DNA of 64,000 bases from Pseudomonadales bacterium (GCA_035458985.1 DATHYR010000288.1:8832-72831); one strand, 5' to 3'. Positions 2,476 to 31,849 are shown, counted from the first letter of the stretch. The notes: a model not told the origin generated them from the letters alone. Translations and numbers: made by a program.

Positions 2476-3252
2476 TTGAATCACACGTTCGACGCCGAGG
2501 ATGTCGAGCAACTCGACATCCTCTTCCTTGATAAGCACTACGTCGTTATCGACAAACCCTCTGGCCTCCTTGTCCACCGCAGCCCTATTGATCGTCATGA
2601 GACGCGCTTTGCCTTACAAATACTGCGCGATCAACTCGGCCAATACATCTACCCTATTCACCGCCTAGACAAACCTACGTCAGGTGCCATGATCTTCGCT
2701 CTCAGCCGTGAGGCGGCCAATGCCATGGCCGAGCAAATTCATAGCGATACCGTTCAAAAAACCTATTGGGCGGTGGTAAGAGGCTTCACCCCTGAAGAAG
2801 GAAGTATTGAGCATGCGCTCAGTTATCAAGCGGATGATTATGCGGATAAGGACAAACGTATTTTACCACCTGCACAGTCCGCACTGACGCATTTTAGGCG
2901 TTTGGCCACCGTTGAAATTCCAGTCTTTGTCGATCGCTATCCTCAAACCCGGTATTCTTGGGTGGAACTCACGCCGGTCACAGGCCGTCGACACCAATTG
3001 CGTCGACACATGAAGCATATTGGACACCCCATCATTGGCGATGCTCGCCACGGTAAAGGGGTCCACAACCGATATTTTCAAGATGCCTATAACGCGCATC
3101 GTTTAATGTTGATGTCAAGACAACTGCGCTGGCAACATCCCTTCAGCGGCGACATGATCTGTTGCGAAGCGTCAATGGATGAAGCGTTTCGAAATGTGTT
3201 TACCGCGTTTGAATGGGCGCTGCCTACGCTAGGCGACAGCCCCCACCAATAG
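2476..3252 (+). CDS. truC: tRNA pseudouridine(65) synthase TruC (RluA family)
   Basis: Motifs DKPSGLLVHRS...HRLDKPTSGAMIFA, and length and layout match TruC. TTG start. Confidence 0.85.
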   Translation: MNHTFDAEDVEQLDILFLDKHYVVIDKPSGLLVHRSPIDRHETRFALQILRDQLGQYIYPIHRLDKPTSGAMIFALSREAANAMAEQIHSDTVQKTYWAVVRGFTPEEGSIEHALSYQADDYADKDKRILPPAQSALTHFRRLATVEIPVFVDRYPQTRYSWVELTPVTGRRHQLRRHMKHIGHPIIGDARHGKGVHNRYFQDAYNAHRLMLMSRQLRWQHPFSGDMICCEASMDEAFRNVFTAFEWALPTLGDSPHQ

Positions 3253-9343: not shown

Positions 9344-10441
9344 CTAGCGACCCATCTCATCATCAGAGGTTTCAAATGACACCTCAACCCGCTGACCGGC
9401 ACTGACGTATTCCTGACCAATCGTCACCAACGTCGTCACGTCAGGTAAACCACGTACCCAGATACCGGCCTCACTGTCGGCCAATGTTTCAACCAGCGCA
9501 AAATGAACCACGTTATCACTATCGAGATATTTCAAACCCATACGACCAGCATCATCCAAACTCAGCAGGGATGAAGGCACGTTGTGGGCTTTCACCGCAG
9601 GTAAATTGACACTGATATTGGCGGTTAACCCTGCACGCACGAGATAGTCAGTGTTATCAAGTAAGGCTTCGATTTTGAAGGTCCGCGTCATCGCATCGGC
9701 TTGTGATGCCACATAGCGTAACGTCCCTTGAACAGTAGTTTCCCCAGCCAAGACCACATCAACGGGCATACCGGGTTGTAATTGAGACACCACACGCTCA
9801 GACACTTGGCCGACCACTACCAAGGGATTCAATTCCAACACAGACGCACACTGCGTACCTACATTAAGTAAATCGCCTTGCTCCACATGGAAGGTTTCAA
9901 CCACACCTTTAAAGGGCGCGCGAATCTCAAGATACGCCATTTCAAGCTCTCGGCGTTTTAACTGAGCAGAGGCACTGTCCATACGAGCTTTGGCAGCAGC
10001 GATAGCCTGCTTTGATTGATACCCGGCGGTTTTGAGTGCCAACGCTCCATCGTACTCAATTTTTGCTTGGGTCAATACTGAACGCGCTTCTTGCAGTTTC
10101 AGGGCGCGATCTTCCTCAGCTAAGCGACACAAGAGTGCCCCTGCTTCGACAACTTGCCCCTCGCTATCGGCGCGAAATGCCAGCAAGCCGCCAATTTGAG
10201 CCTTAAGCACAACACGCCGATTGGCTTCAGTGCGGCCTTTAACCGCTAAGCTAGGTATGAAGTCGACAGCCTCCAACTGTTTTACCTTGACCACCATATT
10301 TTGAGCATTGGTCACCCGATCTTCTTGAGCCACCGTCTCGTGTGAGGAGAATACACCCGAGACAAGCCATGCCACAGAAAGGACCAAAATAAGTAATGCG
10401 GTTCGGTAATTTTTATTGGTCGCAAGATCTTTAATGAGCAT
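9344..10441 (-). CDS. RND efflux periplasmic adaptor (membrane fusion protein)
   Basis: N-terminal anchor helix, coiled-coil hairpin and beta-barrel regions typical of HlyD/AcrA-like MFPs. ATG at 10441 is preferred over the GTG at 10492. Confidence 0.9.
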   Translation of the reverse strand: MLIKDLATNKNYRTALLILVLSVAWLVSGVFSSHETVAQEDRVTNAQNMVVKVKQLEAVDFIPSLAVKGRTEANRRVVLKAQIGGLLAFRADSEGQVVEAGALLCRLAEEDRALKLQEARSVLTQAKIEYDGALALKTAGYQSKQAIAAAKARMDSASAQLKRRELEMAYLEIRAPFKGVVETFHVEQGDLLNVGTQCASVLELNPLVVVGQVSERVVSQLQPGMPVDVVLAGETTVQGTLRYVASQADAMTRTFKIEALLDNTDYLVRAGLTANISVNLPAVKAHNVPSSLLSLDDAGRMGLKYLDSDNVVHFALVETLADSEAGIWVRGLPDVTTLVTIGQEYVSAGQRVEVSFETSDDEMGR

Positions 10442-10575: not shown

Positions 10576-11277
10576 CTAGGCGTGGCTCAACACTTGATCT
10601 ACCCATTCGGGCACCAACGCGCTGGCCAACCCTTGACGCGCCTCGTCAAATACAGAGGTCACAAGGCTCACATCCATATTCAGCTCAAGCGTCTTGGCAC
10701 CCGCGGCATTGGCCACGTCTACAAAGCCTGCTGCAGGATACACATGCCCTGACGTACCAATGGCAACAAATAAATCAGCCTTTTCAAGGGCCGAGTAGAT
10801 CTCATTCATGGCTTTAGGCATCTCACCAAACCAGACAATGTCTGGTCGCAGTTCGCCGACGCGTCGACAAGCGGTGCACGCATGTGCTGGTGAACAATCA
10901 TCGCGATGAATAAATACTTCACCACACCCCTGACAACATACCTTGAGCAATTCACCATGCATATGAATAACCTTTGTGCTGCCGCCACGCTCGTGCAAGT
11001 CGTCAACATTTTGGGTGACCAAGGTCACCCGCTCCGGCAGCGCCCGCTGTAATTTTGCCAATGCCCTATGGGCAGCATTGGGCACGACCGATTCACTCAT
11101 TAGCTGCCGTCGCCGTGCGTTGTAAAATTGGTGCACTACTTCGGGATGCCTGACAAAGCCCTCCGGCGAGGCCACGTCCTCAATCCGGTGGCCTTCCCAT
11201 AAGCCATCCGAAGCGCGAAATGTTTGGATACCTGATTCGGCGGAAATCCCCGCCCCTGTCAAAATAACTATTTTCAT
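10576..11277 (-). CDS. cobB: NAD-dependent protein deacylase (Sir2 family, CobB)
   Basis: GAGISAESGIQTFR and QNVDDLHERGG motifs, with a Cys-x2-Cys...Cys-x2-Cys zinc ribbon. Confidence 0.9.
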   Translation of the reverse strand: MKIVILTGAGISAESGIQTFRASDGLWEGHRIEDVASPEGFVRHPEVVHQFYNARRRQLMSESVVPNAAHRALAKLQRALPERVTLVTQNVDDLHERGGSTKVIHMHGELLKVCCQGCGEVFIHRDDCSPAHACTACRRVGELRPDIVWFGEMPKAMNEIYSALEKADLFVAIGTSGHVYPAAGFVDVANAAGAKTLELNMDVSLVTSVFDEARQGLASALVPEWVDQVLSHA

Positions 11278-11369
11278 AATTGGCTATCCAGGATCTATTA
11301 CAATCGGTTGCAAAATGCTAGTCTCTCAACTATCGCACCTAAGCAATAACAAGACTAGCAGGTATACTC

Positions 11370-12149
11370 ATGACCATAAAAACGATCGTGTGGGGCGAAA
11401 ACGTCCACGAACATACCAATACCGTTGTCGGCAGACTTTATCCCGACGGCATGCACAGTACCATCGCCGCAGCCCTCAACGAAGATCCCCGAATTGAGGC
11501 CACCACCGCTACGCTTCAAGACGCCGAGCACGGCCTAAGCGAAGCGCGTCTGGAAGGCACCGACGTACTGATATGGTGGGGCCATTGCGCCCACGGCGAT
11601 GTCGACGACGAGATCGTCGACCGTGTTCAACGTCGGGTATTAGAGGGCATGGGTCTGATTGTGCTGCACTCGGGCCACTACTCCAAAATCTTTAAACGCC
11701 TCATGGGGACAACCTGTTCTCTCAAGTGGCGCGAAGCGGGTGAGCGAGAACGCCTCTGGGTGGTTAACCCAGGTCATCCCATTGTGCAAGGCCTCGGTGA
11801 CTACCTCGAACTTCCCCATACCGAAATGTATGGCGAGCCCTTTGCGGTACCCAATCCCGACGAAGTGGTATTCATCAGTGCTTTTGAAGGCGGTGAAGTC
11901 TTCCGCTCAGGCCTGACCTACAAACGTGGTAATGGCAAAATATTTTATTTCCGCCCGGGTCATGAAACCTACCCCATTTTTTACAATGAGGAAGTCCGCA
12001 TGGTGTTGAGAAACGCTGTAAAATGGGCTCAGCCAGAGGGCTCTCGTTGGATTGATAGCTGCCCTAACGTTCCACCAGAGAAAGCGCCTAACCCCATCAC
12101 CGTGAAAGGTGAAGGCCTACACAGACCTGGCGATAAAGGATTTAAGTAA
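11370..12149 (+). CDS. ThuA-domain protein (trehalose-utilisation-like)
   Basis: 259 aa with ThuA-like sequence ([11 protein letters not shown]...VLHSGHYSK). Confidence 0.75.
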
Positions 12150-27410: not shown

Positions 27411-27552
27411 TAGGTGCATGTGCTGAGTATTCGCCCAGCGCAAGTGCTTAAGGTTTGCAGCCATGTTCTTTGCTGAGGAACAGCCCGTCATGGCTTCAAA
27501 AAGTCCCGATTAGTCGGTGACGGCCAAGCTGCAGCCGCTTGATAAGAGCCGC

Positions 27553-27885
27553 CTACTTTGACATGAGCTGCCTAACCGCCCCCAGTAACGAGTGCCTAAC
27601 CAGCGGGCGCTCGTGGTGTGGCACCCAAATTTCAACCAACTCACCTAAATTTAACGTCACGTGCGTGATCTTTTCTTCAATGGTTTGACCGTTGGCACTG
27701 GAAATAAGGTCGTTTAACCCTAAATCGAGCAAAGCATTAAAAATGGTGTGTTCATCGGCATTATGCCGTGACAGCTCGTGGGCAACACCTATTAAACCGG
27801 CAGACAGTTGACGCTCTGATAAATTAAAGGTCGTTTGCCCTTCACTGTCAGTAACCATAAATTGATCTCGCGTATTATCATTCAT
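27553..27885 (-). CDS. Hypothetical acidic soluble protein (110 aa; 132 aa if the TTG at 27951 is used)
   Basis: Only ORF of its size in the region. I recognise no family. It is divergent from the DUF4041-like pair. The RBS is weak. Confidence 0.5.
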   Translation of the reverse strand: MNDNTRDQFMVTDSEGQTTFNLSERQLSAGLIGVAHELSRHNADEHTIFNALLDLGLNDLISSANGQTIEEKITHVTLNLGELVEIWVPHHERPLVRHSLLGAVRQLMSK

Positions 27886-27979
27886 CCATGAATCTCTGTT
27901 TATTTTTATCTGTAACCAAGCACTATCATTTGAGTTACATGTTAGTGACAACTTAAATACTTAACATCTTAATTTTTTG

Positions 27980-28013
27980 AATAAATTCGAATATTTAATC
28001 CAATAAATTCGAA
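27980..28013. promoter_or_regulatory. Duplicated 12-mer AATAAATTCGAA (22-bp period), candidate operator
   Basis: Exact copies at 27980-27991 and 28002-28013 inside the AT-rich divergent intergenic region. The first copy contains the palindrome ATTCGAAT. Confidence 0.4.
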
Positions 28014-28246
28014 AAAAATTAACTACCTAAAGGTGACTTTTCAGAACAGCCACACCATCACCGCCGGCAATGGCCACACGCCAGCAACGATTTTTTTTAA
28101 TCTCGAAAGGAAATAACAACGCATTCAGTTAGTTGAAAATGTTCTTTATTTGTACGTCTTTGTTACACAAAAACAAAACATCCTAACTACATTCACATGG
28201 TGCACTTGCTTTTTGCACAGCACGCCGACGGAAATGGCGTGTCTTA

Positions 28247-29371
28247 ATGCTCATGGAGGATGGCATGCAAGACCTATCACTCATAAGCCTGTCACTAGTC
28301 AGCATAACGTGCTTGTTGTTATTAATGATGGGGTTTCAGTGGCAACGACGCCACAACACCTATGTACAGTTCTTAGCTGACACCACGGCGTCACTTGGCC
28401 CGCGCAGTATTAACGATGAAAAAAATCGCCTTCTACTTGAACGAGAACATCTAGAACAGCGCCACGATCAAGGCAAGCATCGATATAAGCAGCTTCAACA
28501 CCATCTGCAAGACGCCACGAAAACCATTGCCCAATTCAAAGTGGGACTAGAACCCCCCACCTTTTGCCAAGACGAGGACGAGTTTCACAAGGCTCAAATA
28601 CGCGAATTACGTCGCCAACAATATGCCATGATCAGCACTGGCCGCGCCGTATCTCGACTTAACACTACTACGCCTGATACTCACGACCACCGACATGAAC
28701 GGCACGTTCACATGTTACTGCGCAGCTTTAATGCCGAATGCGAGTCACTTTACCGCCGGCTTCGCTCCAGCAACCTCATGCTCATGCAATCCAAGTTGCT
28801 TCAAGCTCAAGCGCACTGTAACAAATTCACGCAATGCTTTGGTCTTGCCATTACTGATGGCTATGCCCACTTAAAAGCACAAGAAATGGATGCTTGGTAT
28901 GCGTCCCTCGTGGATCGCATCAAAGCCAAACACCATACACCATCTATGGGTCGTGACAGCGGTTATATCTATGTGCTGTCAAATATAGGCAGTTTTGGCA
29001 AAGATACTCTGTTGGTGGGCTACACCCAAGACCCTCACCCCGAACAGGTGATTGCAGACATGGGTAAGGAAATCACCCCCTTTAATTTCAATGTACACAC
29101 GCTGGCGTTCAGCGAACAAATGTTCATGATGTATGCCGCCATCACAGACAAGATGGATGCTCAATGCATTAGTCGGCTTGGCAGTAACCCCGCTTACTTT
29201 AAGATATCCAAGCCACGCGCCAAACAGGTTTTTGAAAGCTTGGGCGTGATCTCGCCATGGTACTTTGATACCGCGCCACGCGACTTCATTGAAAGCCAGT
29301 TGCAACGCCATGCTGGCCAAGTCTTTTCTACCGAACGCTTGCCCTCAAGCCTACTGCCCTCTGACATTTAG
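28247..29371 (+). CDS. Membrane-anchored DUF4041/T5orf172(GIY-YIG-like)-domain protein, paralogue 1
   Basis: N-terminal TM helix (LSLISLSLVSITCLLLLMMGF) and a coiled-coil region. A DUF4041-like block (LLRSFNAECESLYRRL) follows, then C-terminal GYIYVLSNIGSFGKDTLLVGYT...FNVHTLAFSE. The likely true start is the ATG at 28265, 4 nt after GGAGGA. Confidence 0.75.
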   Translation: MLMEDGMQDLSLISLSLVSITCLLLLMMGFQWQRRHNTYVQFLADTTASLGPRSINDEKNRLLLEREHLEQRHDQGKHRYKQLQHHLQDATKTIAQFKVGLEPPTFCQDEDEFHKAQIRELRRQQYAMISTGRAVSRLNTTTPDTHDHRHERHVHMLLRSFNAECESLYRRLRSSNLMLMQSKLLQAQAHCNKFTQCFGLAITDGYAHLKAQEMDAWYASLVDRIKAKHHTPSMGRDSGYIYVLSNIGSFGKDTLLVGYTQDPHPEQVIADMGKEITPFNFNVHTLAFSEQMFMMYAAITDKMDAQCISRLGSNPAYFKISKPRAKQVFESLGVISPWYFDTAPRDFIESQLQRHAGQVFSTERLPSSLLPSDI

Positions 29372-29380
29372 GAGCTCACT

Positions 29381-30574
29381 ATGTCGATAGTTATTTACTC
29401 CACGATGCTTGGTTTAAGTGCAGGATACGCCGCCTATGGCTACTGGCATATGCAGCAGGTCAAGGACGAATACACGCGAGTAAAACGGCACATTTTTCCG
29501 GTGCAAAGGGAGCGTAATCTGATAGCCAAGCGCCTTGCTAGCTATCAAGAACTGCAGCAACGCTACCGTGAAGAACGCCAACAGCTCAAACAGTGCGAAG
29601 AGATTATACAAACACATCACATTGGGGTGGGTACCTTTGACCCAGTATTATACAAACGCAGCAAGGACATCGCCGATCTCGAGGTATTAGACACAGAATT
29701 GCAACACGTCAGCCGACAAATCGCCACCATGGCAGCCGAGCATATGGCGGTTGATTACCCAGCAGAAATGGCCGATGAATACCATCAAAACCATGCCGCA
29801 CTGCGACTACGTTGTTTCGACGCCGAAGCCGATGCCGCTATTGCTCAAGTCACCTGGTACAACGTGCACCGCCTCAGTCAACGTCTGCGTCATTGCTGCA
29901 AAGATATCGGCACCGATAACGACTGCATGGGGGTTACCATCAACCCCGATTACCGCGATCTTCGCCTCCATCAACTTCGCTTGGTCTATGAAATTAAACA
30001 ATTGCACGAAGACCAAGACGCCCTCAAAAATGCCCAAAACAGCACGCAGCAACATCAAGAATTGGCACTCGAGAAGGCCTTACAACAAGCCATGCAAGAA
30101 ACCACCGAACGCCAAGCCTCCTTGGAAGAAGCGCTATTTTTACTTGATAGAAAAGCCCCCGACTACCGACAGCGGCGAGATGATCTGCTGCAGCTATTAG
30201 CCTTGATCAAGTCACGCATGCATTACGTGCAAGACATTCAACAAAATCCCCAGGCTGGCTTCGTGTATGTCGCGTCGAACGAAGGCGTATTTTCTAACCG
30301 CATGGTTAAAATCGGTGCCTGTCGTCACCCCGACCCAGAACGTCATATTAAAGATATCAGCCAAGTCTTACCCACTAGCATGGATATACATGGCGTGTTT
30401 TTTAGTACGCATACCGAGCGGCTACTCGACCAACTTCACCAAACATTAGCCGACCATCAAGTGAACCTTACCGACAGCCATAAAGGGTTTTATTTCGTCA
30501 AACCTGAGGTGGCCCTGCACCACATTGAGAACATACAACGCAGCAACGACAACATAAACATCAAGGCGGTGTAG
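29381..30574 (+). CDS. Membrane-anchored DUF4041/T5orf172(GIY-YIG-like)-domain protein, paralogue 2
   Basis: AGGAG RBS and a 9-nt gap from paralogue 1. TM helix and coiled coil are present. The DUF4041-like block is LRLRCFDAEADAAIAQVTWYNVHRL, and the C-terminal domain reads GFVYVASNEGVFSNRMVKIGAC...IHGVFFS...LHQTL. Confidence 0.8.
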   Translation: MSIVIYSTMLGLSAGYAAYGYWHMQQVKDEYTRVKRHIFPVQRERNLIAKRLASYQELQQRYREERQQLKQCEEIIQTHHIGVGTFDPVLYKRSKDIADLEVLDTELQHVSRQIATMAAEHMAVDYPAEMADEYHQNHAALRLRCFDAEADAAIAQVTWYNVHRLSQRLRHCCKDIGTDNDCMGVTINPDYRDLRLHQLRLVYEIKQLHEDQDALKNAQNSTQQHQELALEKALQQAMQETTERQASLEEALFLLDRKAPDYRQRRDDLLQLLALIKSRMHYVQDIQQNPQAGFVYVASNEGVFSNRMVKIGACRHPDPERHIKDISQVLPTSMDIHGVFFSTHTERLLDQLHQTLADHQVNLTDSHKGFYFVKPEVALHHIENIQRSNDNINIKAV

Positions 30575-30663
30575 CAAACTAACGTTTGCCGCCGTCTCTA
30601 CCGACAGCCCACCCCCTTTGTCATATAATGCAGGGCAAGCCAATAAACAAAACGTGGGCACCC

Positions 30664-31707
30664 ATGAAAGCCGTAGTATTTGAACAGTTTGCACAGTTAC
30701 CCAAGATCATGCGGGTGGACGACCCCACCCCCAGCCCAGCAGGTGTGGTCATTAAAGTAGCAGCCACCGGGGTATGTCGCAGTGACTGGCACGGATGGAT
30801 GGGCCACGACCCAGATATTACGCTACCGCATGTGCCTGGCCACGAATTCGCCGGCACCATTGAAGCGGTTGGCCACCAAGTTCGAGGCTTTAAAATTGGC
30901 GACCGCGTCACCTCGCCTTTCATTAGCGCCTGTGGCCATTGCCGCGACTGCGCCTCGGGCAACCACCAAGTGTGTGCCACCCAAACCCAACCTGGCTTTA
31001 CCCACTGGGGCTCATTTGCAGAATACGTGCGCATAGACCACGCCGATGTGAACCTGATCACCCTCCCCGACAGCATGAGTTTCACCACCGCTGCCAGCCT
31101 AGGCTGTCGCTTTGCCACCGCCTTTCGCGCCGTGGTTGATCAAGGGGCCGTGCGCGCTGGGCAATGGGTCGCGGTGCATGGCTGCGGCGGGGTGGGTCTT
31201 TCTGCCGTGATGATCGCCATCGCCTTGGGCGCCAATGTGATTGCCGTGGATGTTTCACCAGACGCTCTCGCACTCGCACACCGCTTAGGTGCGGCGGCTA
31301 CTCTTAATGCCAACGAGGTGGACGACGTGCCAGGGGCGATACAAGCCTTGACCCAAGGCGGTGCACACGTCTCTCTCGACGCACTCGGCCATCCGACCAC
31401 TGCCGTCAATTCGGTGGCATGCTTACGCCGCCTAGGGCGGCATATTCAAGTGGGATTATTGCTGGCAGATCAAGCTACGCCTCCGCTACCCATGGACAGA
31501 GTGGTCGCTTACGAGTTAATGATTCTCGGCAGCCACGGCATGCAAGCACACCGCTACGACGCCATGCTGGCGATGATTCTTAACGGCAAATTGCACCCAG
31601 AAAAGTTGCTTCACCGCACCATTAGCCTAGAAGCATCCATTGAGGCGCTCACCGCCATGGACAGCTTCAAGCACCCGGGAGTGACGGTGGTCACGCAGTT
31701 TCGATAG
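30664..31707 (+). CDS. Zinc-dependent alcohol dehydrogenase family oxidoreductase
   Basis: Starts MKAVVFEQF, with [20 protein letters not shown] and CGHCRDC structural-zinc motifs. The upstream 26 codons are rejected. Confidence 0.9.
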
Positions 31708-31787
31708 GCGCTGACAGGAACAACTCGCGAAGATGTTTGCGCGCGCAGCAAACGTGCTTCTCCGGGGGTATAGCGTCATTTCTGAAA

Positions 31788-31820
31788 ACAAAAAAGGAGC
31801 CCCGAAGGGCTCCCAAAAAT
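31788..31820. terminator. Bidirectional Rho-independent terminator between adh and ahpF
   Basis: AAAAAA-GGAGCCC-cgaa-GGGCTCC-CAAAAAT. Confidence 0.8.
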
Positions 31821-31849
31821 AAGACACTGGGTAAATGTCTAGGAGAAAA

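Follow-up and report, generated by a model that had tools for sequence, protein, structure and literature searches.

We analysed a window of 64,000 nt of DNA from a Pseudomonadales bacterium (GCA_035458985.1 DATHYR010000288.1:8832-72831), in which a locus at positions 27,553 to 30,574 carries two tandem genes on the + strand, here called A and B, and a small open reading frame (ORF), C, on the - strand. The original prediction, made from the sequence alone, had read A and B as two + strand ORFs lying 9 nt apart (28247/28265-29371 and 29381-30574), each behind a strong ribosome-binding site (RBS), and both points are borne out, with GGAGGA at 28255-28260 in front of A and AGGAG at 29370-29374 in front of B. 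Gene A has an alternative upstream ATG at 28247. As the GGAGGA RBS and the 28265 ATG recur in the orthologue from an uncultured Pseudomonadales metagenome-assembled genome (MAG; locus L003), where the upstream ATG is not conserved, the start of A was set at 28265, which gives a protein of 368 aa (28265..29371). The ORF of B (29381..30574) encodes 397 aa.

Both proteins belong to one family. Pfam PF13250 (DUF4041, now named 'SNIPE'; threshold 27) is matched by A with 34.4 bits (E=2.1e-8; domain core at 28715..28876) and by B with 44.1 bits (E=1.9e-11; domain core at 29807..29965). At the C-terminal end, B passes the Pfam MUG113 threshold of 22.3 with 23.1 bits (residues 291-384, 30251..30532), while A falls just under the T5orf172 threshold of 20 with 19.1 bits. 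A custom hidden Markov model (HMM), built from canonical SNIPE nuclease domains, finds both (A, E=2.6e-18; B, E=1.5e-17), and together with residue tables and a structural model it delimits in A a degenerate GIY-YIG-like domain at residues 232-348 (28958..29308). The DUF4041 calls and the T5orf172/MUG113-type GIY-YIG calls of the original prediction are thus upheld, in A by the custom profile. The PADLOC PD-Lambda-1 models also match A (E=8.2e-34) and B (E=4.8e-41, in one stretch covering residues 42-389), and PHROG 1847 matches both. Between themselves, A and B align by BLASTP over the GIY-YIG block (E=4e-8) and share 21.9% global identity, in keeping with the old duplication, with about a quarter of positions shared, that had been proposed by eye. 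In summary, A and B are homologues of SNIPE (PD-lambda-1), and they are true but old paralogues, which we refer to as the A-type and B-type SNIPE paralogues.

A functional selection for anti-phage genes in E. coli yielded PD-lambda-1 (Vassallo et al. 2022, PMC9519451), which was later characterised as SNIPE (Saxton et al. 2026, PMC13190303), so the earlier statement that DUF4041-T5orf172 proteins have no established function is out of date. SNIPE is a single inner-membrane protein with a periplasmic N-terminus; its DUF4041 region binds DNA and probably also the tape-measure proteins of siphoviruses, and its C-terminal GIY-YIG nuclease cuts phage DNA during injection, which protects against siphoviruses (PMC13190303). 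It associates with the tape-measure protein and with ManYZ, neither defence nor DNA cleavage survives the E414A substitution in the E. coli protein, and removal of the transmembrane (TM) helix (SNIPE-deltaTM) makes the nuclease toxic to the host (PMC13190303). Among homologues, 59% have one TM helix, and the N-terminal and DUF4041 regions vary, changing specificity, with the nuclease domain stressed as the most conserved part of the family (PMC13190303). The original prediction had reckoned with the pair mapping to an already characterised system, and the PADLOC PD-Lambda-1 matches place it in one in part; its counting of defence among the candidate roles agrees with the known role of the family, which A and B may share.

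Given the importance of E414 in SNIPE, its position was located in two independent ways, from the mutagenic primers and from the E. coli gene itself. Translation of the primers oDS92 and oDS93 gives MIYSEDAPSL[E>A]KKLHDVFDKKRVN, and the same 78 nt occur in one gene, annotated 'DUF4041 domain-containing protein', in 131 of 5,426 complete E. coli genomes, always on the chromosome. In NZ_CP023142.1 (locus L088; 3699299-3700801) this is a solitary 500-aa SNIPE gene in a lambdoid prophage, and the residue numbers quoted in PMC13190303 all agree with it. The E. coli gene stands alone and in opposite orientation between ren and the P22AR/nin region of the prophage.

The canonical signature, Y-K-R-R-R-E-H-N-E, is present in all 99 canonical loci and is made up of the Tyr of GxVY, the Lys of K-I-G, the two Arg of T-R-R, the Arg of D-R, the Glu corresponding to E414, the His of L-H, the Asn of V-N and the Glu of K-E-F-F. 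The E414 Glu is kept in 175 of 181 family representatives outside the clade of the window. Neither A nor B has the intact catalytic residues of the SNIPE nuclease. In the A-type proteins (given in the order window A, P0011, P0012), the GIY Tyr is kept in window A and P0012 and is Phe in P0011, and nearly everything else is replaced: the K-I-G Lys by L, A and A (L250 in the window), the two Arg of T-R-R by QD, FD and QE (Q255 and D256), the E414 Glu by Y, Q and D (Y290), the L-H His by T, A and T (T294), the V-N Asn by S, G and S (S303) and the K-E-F-F Glu by A, C and Y (A310), with the D-R Arg lost as well. The B-type proteins (window B and P0002) keep the Tyr (Y296), the Lys (K310), the first Arg of T-R-R (R315), the His of L-H (H353) and the Asn of V-N (N362); in them the second Arg of T-R-R and the Arg of D-R are His (H316 and H322), and both proteins have Leu in place of the E414 Glu (L349 in the window) and Gly in place of the K-E-F-F Glu (G369 in the window). 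Among the acidic residues near the E414 column in the B-types, no conserved position was found. Hence, of the earlier description of the pair as nuclease-like, the GIY-YIG-like domain stands and the catalytic Glu does not, as it is absent from both proteins, a degeneracy that the original prediction had missed.

The changes seen in B also occur in P0152, a 357-aa SNIPE-family protein that is 24% identical to B and keeps the C-terminal tail: its second Arg is His, its D-R Arg is His and its E414 Glu is Leu. Judging from this comparison, P0152 hints that the B constellation may be a functional alternative and not random decay. In five further representatives another residue (Q, K, R, V, R) takes the place of the E414 Glu, so that Glu-less homologues are sporadic, at about 3% of those sampled. 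Since the canonical nuclease-domain profile found no solved structure by sequence, the catalytic assignment rests on the published E414A data and on the Pfam placement, not on a structural superposition.

We compared the architecture of the two proteins with that of E. coli SNIPE. The N-terminal hydrophobic segment of A is strong, with a Kyte-Doolittle 19-residue mean of 2.42, and predicts a TM helix at residues 4-24 (28274..28336), followed by a positive cluster, QRRH. That of B is weak (1.17 by the same measure), but its first 22 residues (29381..29446) are uncharged and hold a small-xxx-small motif (G11-L-S-A-G15) conserved in three lineages; by hydropathy and conservation, residues 1-22 of B are a probable, weak TM helix. 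The membrane anchoring proposed earlier is therefore well supported for A and probable for B. E. coli SNIPE has a linker helix some 80 aa long (Ec 268-350), which is lost in A and kept in B, and the C-terminal tail is kept in A (SSLLPSDI; cf. Ec SSIIPE...ADAI) and lost in B. Both proteins have DUF4041, with the version in B being closer to the canonical one. By alignment, the paralogues have thus divided the ancestral features between them, the linker going with B and the tail with A.

In A, alignments and the model place the tail at 29258..29368, as a WYF...RDFIESQL helix followed by the terminal SSLLPSDI motif, with two invariant acidic residues, D340 and E343. In the AlphaFold2 model of A (mean predicted local distance difference test score, pLDDT, 86.8), residues 2-92 form a continuous helix, within which the predicted TM segment lies; DUF4041 (106-223) is helical, residues 233-325 make up a beta-beta-alpha-beta-alpha core, and a tail helix (338-351) is followed by a disordered end at 353-368 (the last 16 residues). 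A Foldseek search of the full-length model against the PDB returned only noise (best E=0.1) and no GIY-YIG chain, because the long helix dominates the model.

Relatives of the pair are extremely rare. Word-indexed searches returned only one or two close relatives per protein. The orthologues of A are P0011 (54% identical) and P0012 (40%), and those of B are P0002 (59%) and a partial gene in L002 (43%). An exhaustive HMMER search of 1.84 billion representatives with the A-type profile gave two A-type clusters (at 50% identity) with 663-675 bits, and the next match, at 198 bits, is where the canonical SNIPE proteins begin. Metagenome scans with the B-type and A-type alignments found no close relatives and only two distant canonical loci. 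Each A-type gene found has a B-type gene directly downstream, as the original prediction would have it for other genomes: the gap between A and B is 9 nt in the window and in L001, L003 and L089, of which L001 and L003 are one lineage and L089 is a strain of the window organism, and it is 15 nt in L002, where B is cut by the contig end and the genomic context is different. We looked for a second full-length copy at the canonical loci and found none in 99; the sole doubly matched locus, L065, is one gene split in two. The single-gene organisation of SNIPE is thus not that of A and B, and the tandem pairing and the Glu loss in both copies appear, from the sequences compared, only in a small clade of uncultured Pseudomonadales.

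At the junction in the window (29369..29380), the TAG stop codon of A overlaps the AGGAG RBS of B, with which it shares bases. A and B lie in one reading frame in all three lineages (window 28265-30574; L001 507-2801; L002 3234-4793), and the window junction reads A-TAG-ELT-B, so that stop-codon readthrough would join A to B; given common ancestry, a shared frame is expected by chance about 1 time in 9 and may mean nothing. In the L003 MAG, B (11099-11695) is only 198 aa long, with two internal in-frame deletions, and in L001, a Logan contig of the same lineage, B is full length and C (121-303) is shortened to 60 aa by an internal deletion; these deletions are possibly real decay or assembly artefacts.

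We then looked for selection on the pair among strains from two metagenomes (runs X5 and X8) that are 95-99% identical to the window. The nonsynonymous to synonymous variants number 11:14 in A and 9:10 in B, compared to 9:14 in purK and 2:18 in ahpF as controls, with no indels or stop codons in these strains. With about 79% of sites being nonsynonymous, neutrality is rejected (p=1.5e-6), and the ratio of nonsynonymous to synonymous polymorphism (pN/pS) is about 0.2. The A/B pair is under purifying selection. Strain L089, at 99.8% identity, is too close for a ratio of nonsynonymous to synonymous substitution rates (dN/dS), with nonsynonymous to synonymous counts of 3:0 in A and B together and 1:5 in adh and ahpF together. 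In an environmental metatranscriptome (X12), contigs cover A (28243-28533 and 28738-29172) and B (30057-30406) at a depth similar to that of purK, where DNA carry-over is possible; no X12 contig lies over C.

The gene order of the window (purE, purK, C, A, B, then ahpF, ahpC and oxyR) is syntenic with L003, and the flanking proteins are highly conserved between the two (purE 97.5%, purK 90%, ahpF 92%, ahpC 98% and oxyR 93% identity), compared to 53% for A, 34-42% for C and 59% for B, for which the full-length copy in L001, of the same lineage, was used. For A and B, dN is 0.34-0.37, compared to 0.01-0.06 for the flanks, and the A and B proteins evolve about 6-10 times faster than their neighbours, at a between-species dN/dS of about 0.12; between-species dS is saturated for every gene, and allele age is inseparable from rate in these figures. 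In L006 and L007, whose flanks are 90-96% identical, the A/B pair is missing: L006 has purK, C, a remnant of about 160 nt of the B nuclease domain, orf135 and ahpF, and L007 has purK, C and adh. What lies downstream of B differs too, being adh in the window but two ORFs, both orphans, in L003. Since the content varies between related genomes, the purK-ahpF interval is a variable hot-spot and A/B are accessory.

The contents of this interval read C-A-B-adh in the window (27411-31849), C-A-B-orf177-orf135 in L003 (8914-13251), C-(B remnant)-orf135 in L006 and C-adh in L007. The proteins of orf177 and orf135 have no Pfam match, and neither flanking direct repeats nor mobility genes were seen in the interval. 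The GC content is 49% in both A and B, with a window mean of 50%. The 53-55% given in the original prediction was thus about 5 points off, and its view that the composition of the two genes is not atypical holds; a recent import of A/B was rejected on this composition. A defence-island context was likewise considered and rejected, as A and B alone were clear in a PADLOC scan of the 56 ORFs of the window. That scan also gave single-ORF matches to DEDDh (7e-28), PDC-S48 (2e-17) and CARF3/Csa3-type models (about 1e-6 to 1e-8), models that often match housekeeping proteins.

The longest ORF of C spans 27553-27951 on the - strand, and the conserved start, an ATG at 27885, gives a protein of 110 aa (27553..27885) with an isoelectric point of 5.3, in agreement with the small, acidic, divergently transcribed protein described earlier. 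Only five relatives were found in total among 5.8 billion clusters. C always adjoins purK, with or without A/B (window 27553-27885; L003 9284-9622; L006 2366-2719; L007 698-1033): it is present without A/B in L006 and L007, and A/B are present without C in L002, downstream of a ferredoxin gene. Co-occurrence of C with A/B is thus not obligate, and the three-gene module of the original prediction is not supported. The dN of C is 0.75 against L003, while the neighbouring purK is 90% identical. C gave nothing above noise against Pfam, PADLOC, PHROGs and NCBIfam; its AlphaFold2 model (pLDDT 85, predicted template modelling score 0.76) is a five-helix domain, for which a fold search found no match (best E=0.93 in the PDB and 0.24 in BFVD). 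In summary, C is a fast-evolving orphan neighbour and not a module component.

The divergent region between C and A (27886..28264), also noted in the original prediction, is AT-rich as described (36% GC) and 379 bp long. It has conserved blocks at about 28120-28150 and at 28220-28242 and should contain the A-B promoter; pattern scans for sigma-70 promoters and terminators did not rise above shuffled expectation, and an Rfam search gave no match. A hairpin, CACGCC-loop-GGCGTG, lies upstream of the A RBS (28220-28242) and is conserved in L003 (about 9956-9978) and in L002 (about 3200-3219), where it shows an apparent compensatory G-C to A-T change, and a second predicted hairpin includes the A RBS. 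The folding z-scores of the 5′ untranslated region hairpin predicted in the three lineages (-1.0, -0.1 and -1.3) are not significant.

Taken together, these results lead to an explanation that we hold at about even confidence, namely that A/B is a two-subunit inner-membrane complex derived from a duplicated SNIPE gene, whose role is most likely defence at phage DNA entry. [quoted passage not shown] Such an N-out/C-in topology is suggested by analogy to E. coli SNIPE and by the positive-inside rule. Because the metal-binding Glu is lost in both copies, A is likely to have lost canonical GIY-YIG cleavage, and B to be at least impaired in it, and the pair may have lost nuclease activity. The complex might act in one of two modes, either by holding or blocking the incoming phage DNA and tape-measure complex without cutting, or through cutting by B with a non-canonical active site that depends on A. 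Defence at the DNA-entry step is favoured because it is the only known role of the family, and because of the accessory hot-spot behaviour and the fast evolution of the proteins; an anti-phage role of A/B is accordingly the one that we consider most plausible.

A stricter version of this proposal, which we regard as tentative and doubt more than we credit, is that the pair is an obligate heteromeric pseudo-nuclease derived from SNIPE that protects without canonical GIY-YIG cleavage, either as an entry plug or through a rebuilt active site in B. As a plug, A/B would sit at the inner membrane and clamp the DNA and tape-measure complex as it enters, and in the other case the rebuilt B site (two Arg to His changes and Glu to Leu) might be completed or switched on by the A tail with D340 and E343.

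Several points weigh against a two-subunit complex that defends at DNA entry. Chief among them, nuclease-dead SNIPE E414A fails to protect E. coli (PMC13190303), so that binding alone is not sufficient in the one system studied. In addition, B keeps five catalytic-type residues under selection, and a residual or altered nuclease is possible. The TM segment of B is only weakly hydrophobic, and the three lineages that exist are too few for a coevolution test. Neither A-type nor B-type relatives turned up in scans of viral contigs, mobile-element genes and defence neighbours are absent from the locus, and A and B are the only clear defence-family matches among the 56 window ORFs.

The same evidence can be set against other explanations of the pair. 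A and B might be a domesticated, non-defence device, that is, a nuclease-dead, membrane-tethered, DNA-binding complex for DNA-membrane tethering, uptake or repair. Their chromosomal position, which two diverged species share between purEK and ahpCF-oxyR without mobile-element genes, would fit such a use, as would their host-like GC, the retention of purifying selection after the loss of the catalytic residues, the coverage of both genes by RNA contigs, about as deep as that of purK in an environmental sample, and the lack of relatives on the viral contigs scanned. However, the pair is dispensable, being deleted in L006, with a B remnant, and absent from L007 between flanks that are 90-96% identical; its proteins evolve 6-10 times faster than these flanks, which is typical of conflict genes, its clade is tiny, and its characterised relatives are all anti-phage (PMC9519451, PMC13190303), and we therefore consider domestication unlikely. 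That A and B are instead independent, stand-alone SNIPE-type defence proteins in tandem, perhaps directed at different phages and using substitute catalytic residues (nearby acidic residues or the extra histidines of B), is quite improbable. The essentially complete loss of catalytic residues from A, with an E414 column that varies among the A-types (Y, Q, D), the lack of positional conservation of the nearby acidic residues in the B-types and the complementary loss of the linker and the tail all argue against it, and A and B are never found apart, are translationally linked and are lost together. This has to be balanced against the full TM, DUF4041 and GIY-YIG-like layout of each protein, the Y, K, R, H and N retained in B, the occurrence of the R to H, R to H and E to L changes of B in the distant homologue P0152, and the diversification of N-terminal and DUF4041 regions for specificity that is known among SNIPE homologues (PMC13190303).

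We also weighed whether C could serve A/B specifically, by regulating them, inhibiting them in the manner of an antitoxin or acting as an adaptor. C diverges from A across a common intergenic region in the window and L003, and it evolves fast, like A and B (dN 0.75), but it stands beside purK without A/B in L006 and L007, the A/B genes of L002 follow a ferredoxin gene without C, it matches no defence or regulator family and no fold, and it has no RNA contig where A and B are covered, which makes a three-gene module very improbable. Finally, the pair could be a decaying relic of a former SNIPE system without a present function, as might be read from the catalytic residues lost from both proteins, the loss of the pair in sister lineages and the two internal in-frame deletions in the L003 B. 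We give this hardly any credence, as even between lineages at 39-59% identity the ORFs are intact and the motifs strongly conserved; the strains show neither stops nor indels, and at a pN/pS of about 0.2 neutrality is rejected (p=1.5e-6); both genes lie under RNA contigs, and A folds confidently (pLDDT 86.8).

Of the known systems, SNIPE is the closest to the pair, being the same family by profile (PADLOC PD-Lambda-1, PF13250 and MUG113/T5orf172 GIY-YIG), with its parts arranged alike (N-terminal TM anchor, helical stalk, DUF4041 and C-terminal GIY-YIG-type domain) and with an E. coli-type C-terminal SS[IL][IL]P...I tail kept in A. In contrast to the single ORF of E. coli SNIPE, A/B are two genes, of 368 and 397 aa compared to 500 aa, with A lacking the linker of about 80 aa and B the tail; the E414 Glu and the K-E-F-F Glu are lost in both and nearly all catalytic motifs in A, and the pair lies in a chromosomal, non-mobile hot-spot, whereas E. 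coli SNIPE is prophage-borne. Hence, A/B is not an ordinary SNIPE member, as it lacks the single-gene organisation and the intact catalytic Glu; on the comparisons made here it probably derives from SNIPE as a heteromer whose nuclease chemistry has been lost or altered. The original assignment to the family is correct, but the family is one that has already been characterised.

Heterodimeric nucleases made up of an active and a degenerate paralogue are known in XPF-ERCC1 and Mus81-Eme1. By analogy only, these resemble A/B in duplication and subfunctionalisation, in that B keeps more of the catalytic motif and the dead nuclease-like domain of A would serve in assembly or in binding the substrate; they have another fold and belong to another family, and even B lacks the metal-binding Glu. 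Prophage superinfection-exclusion proteins are small and membrane-anchored and stop phage DNA translocation without degradation, acting at the step of the tape-measure protein and the inner-membrane channel. This class is mentioned in PMC13190303, and its step is the one that SNIPE targets; its members are not homologous to A/B, which have DUF4041 and a GIY-YIG-derived domain and lie outside a prophage. Kiwa (KwaA/KwaB), as cited in PMC13190303, has two genes, is located at the membrane and works at about the stage of genome entry; its effector binds DNA without cleaving it, a non-nucleolytic mode that a Glu-less SNIPE pair might also use. There is no sequence relationship between the two, and KwaA and KwaB are mutually unrelated, unlike the paralogues A and B; at E<=1, no KwaA/KwaB or ZorA-D model of PADLOC was matched by A, B or C.

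SNIPE introduced in 2026 a new form of self/non-self discrimination, in which a nuclease is placed at the site of phage DNA entry (PMC13190303). Within the limits of a tiny clade of uncultured Pseudomonadales, and of functional claims drawn from sequence, the pair bears on how this scaffold works. If the pair does not defend, a defence nuclease would have been domesticated into something else. If it still defends, the SNIPE scaffold (TM anchor, DUF4041 and GIY-YIG fold) is able to work in the absence of canonical cleavage, which would help to separate recognition and positioning from cutting and would amount to a second, nuclease-independent or non-canonical mode for this scaffold. The pair is also a natural experiment on the oligomeric state of SNIPE and on the roles of its linker and C-terminal tail, questions that arise from PMC13190303.

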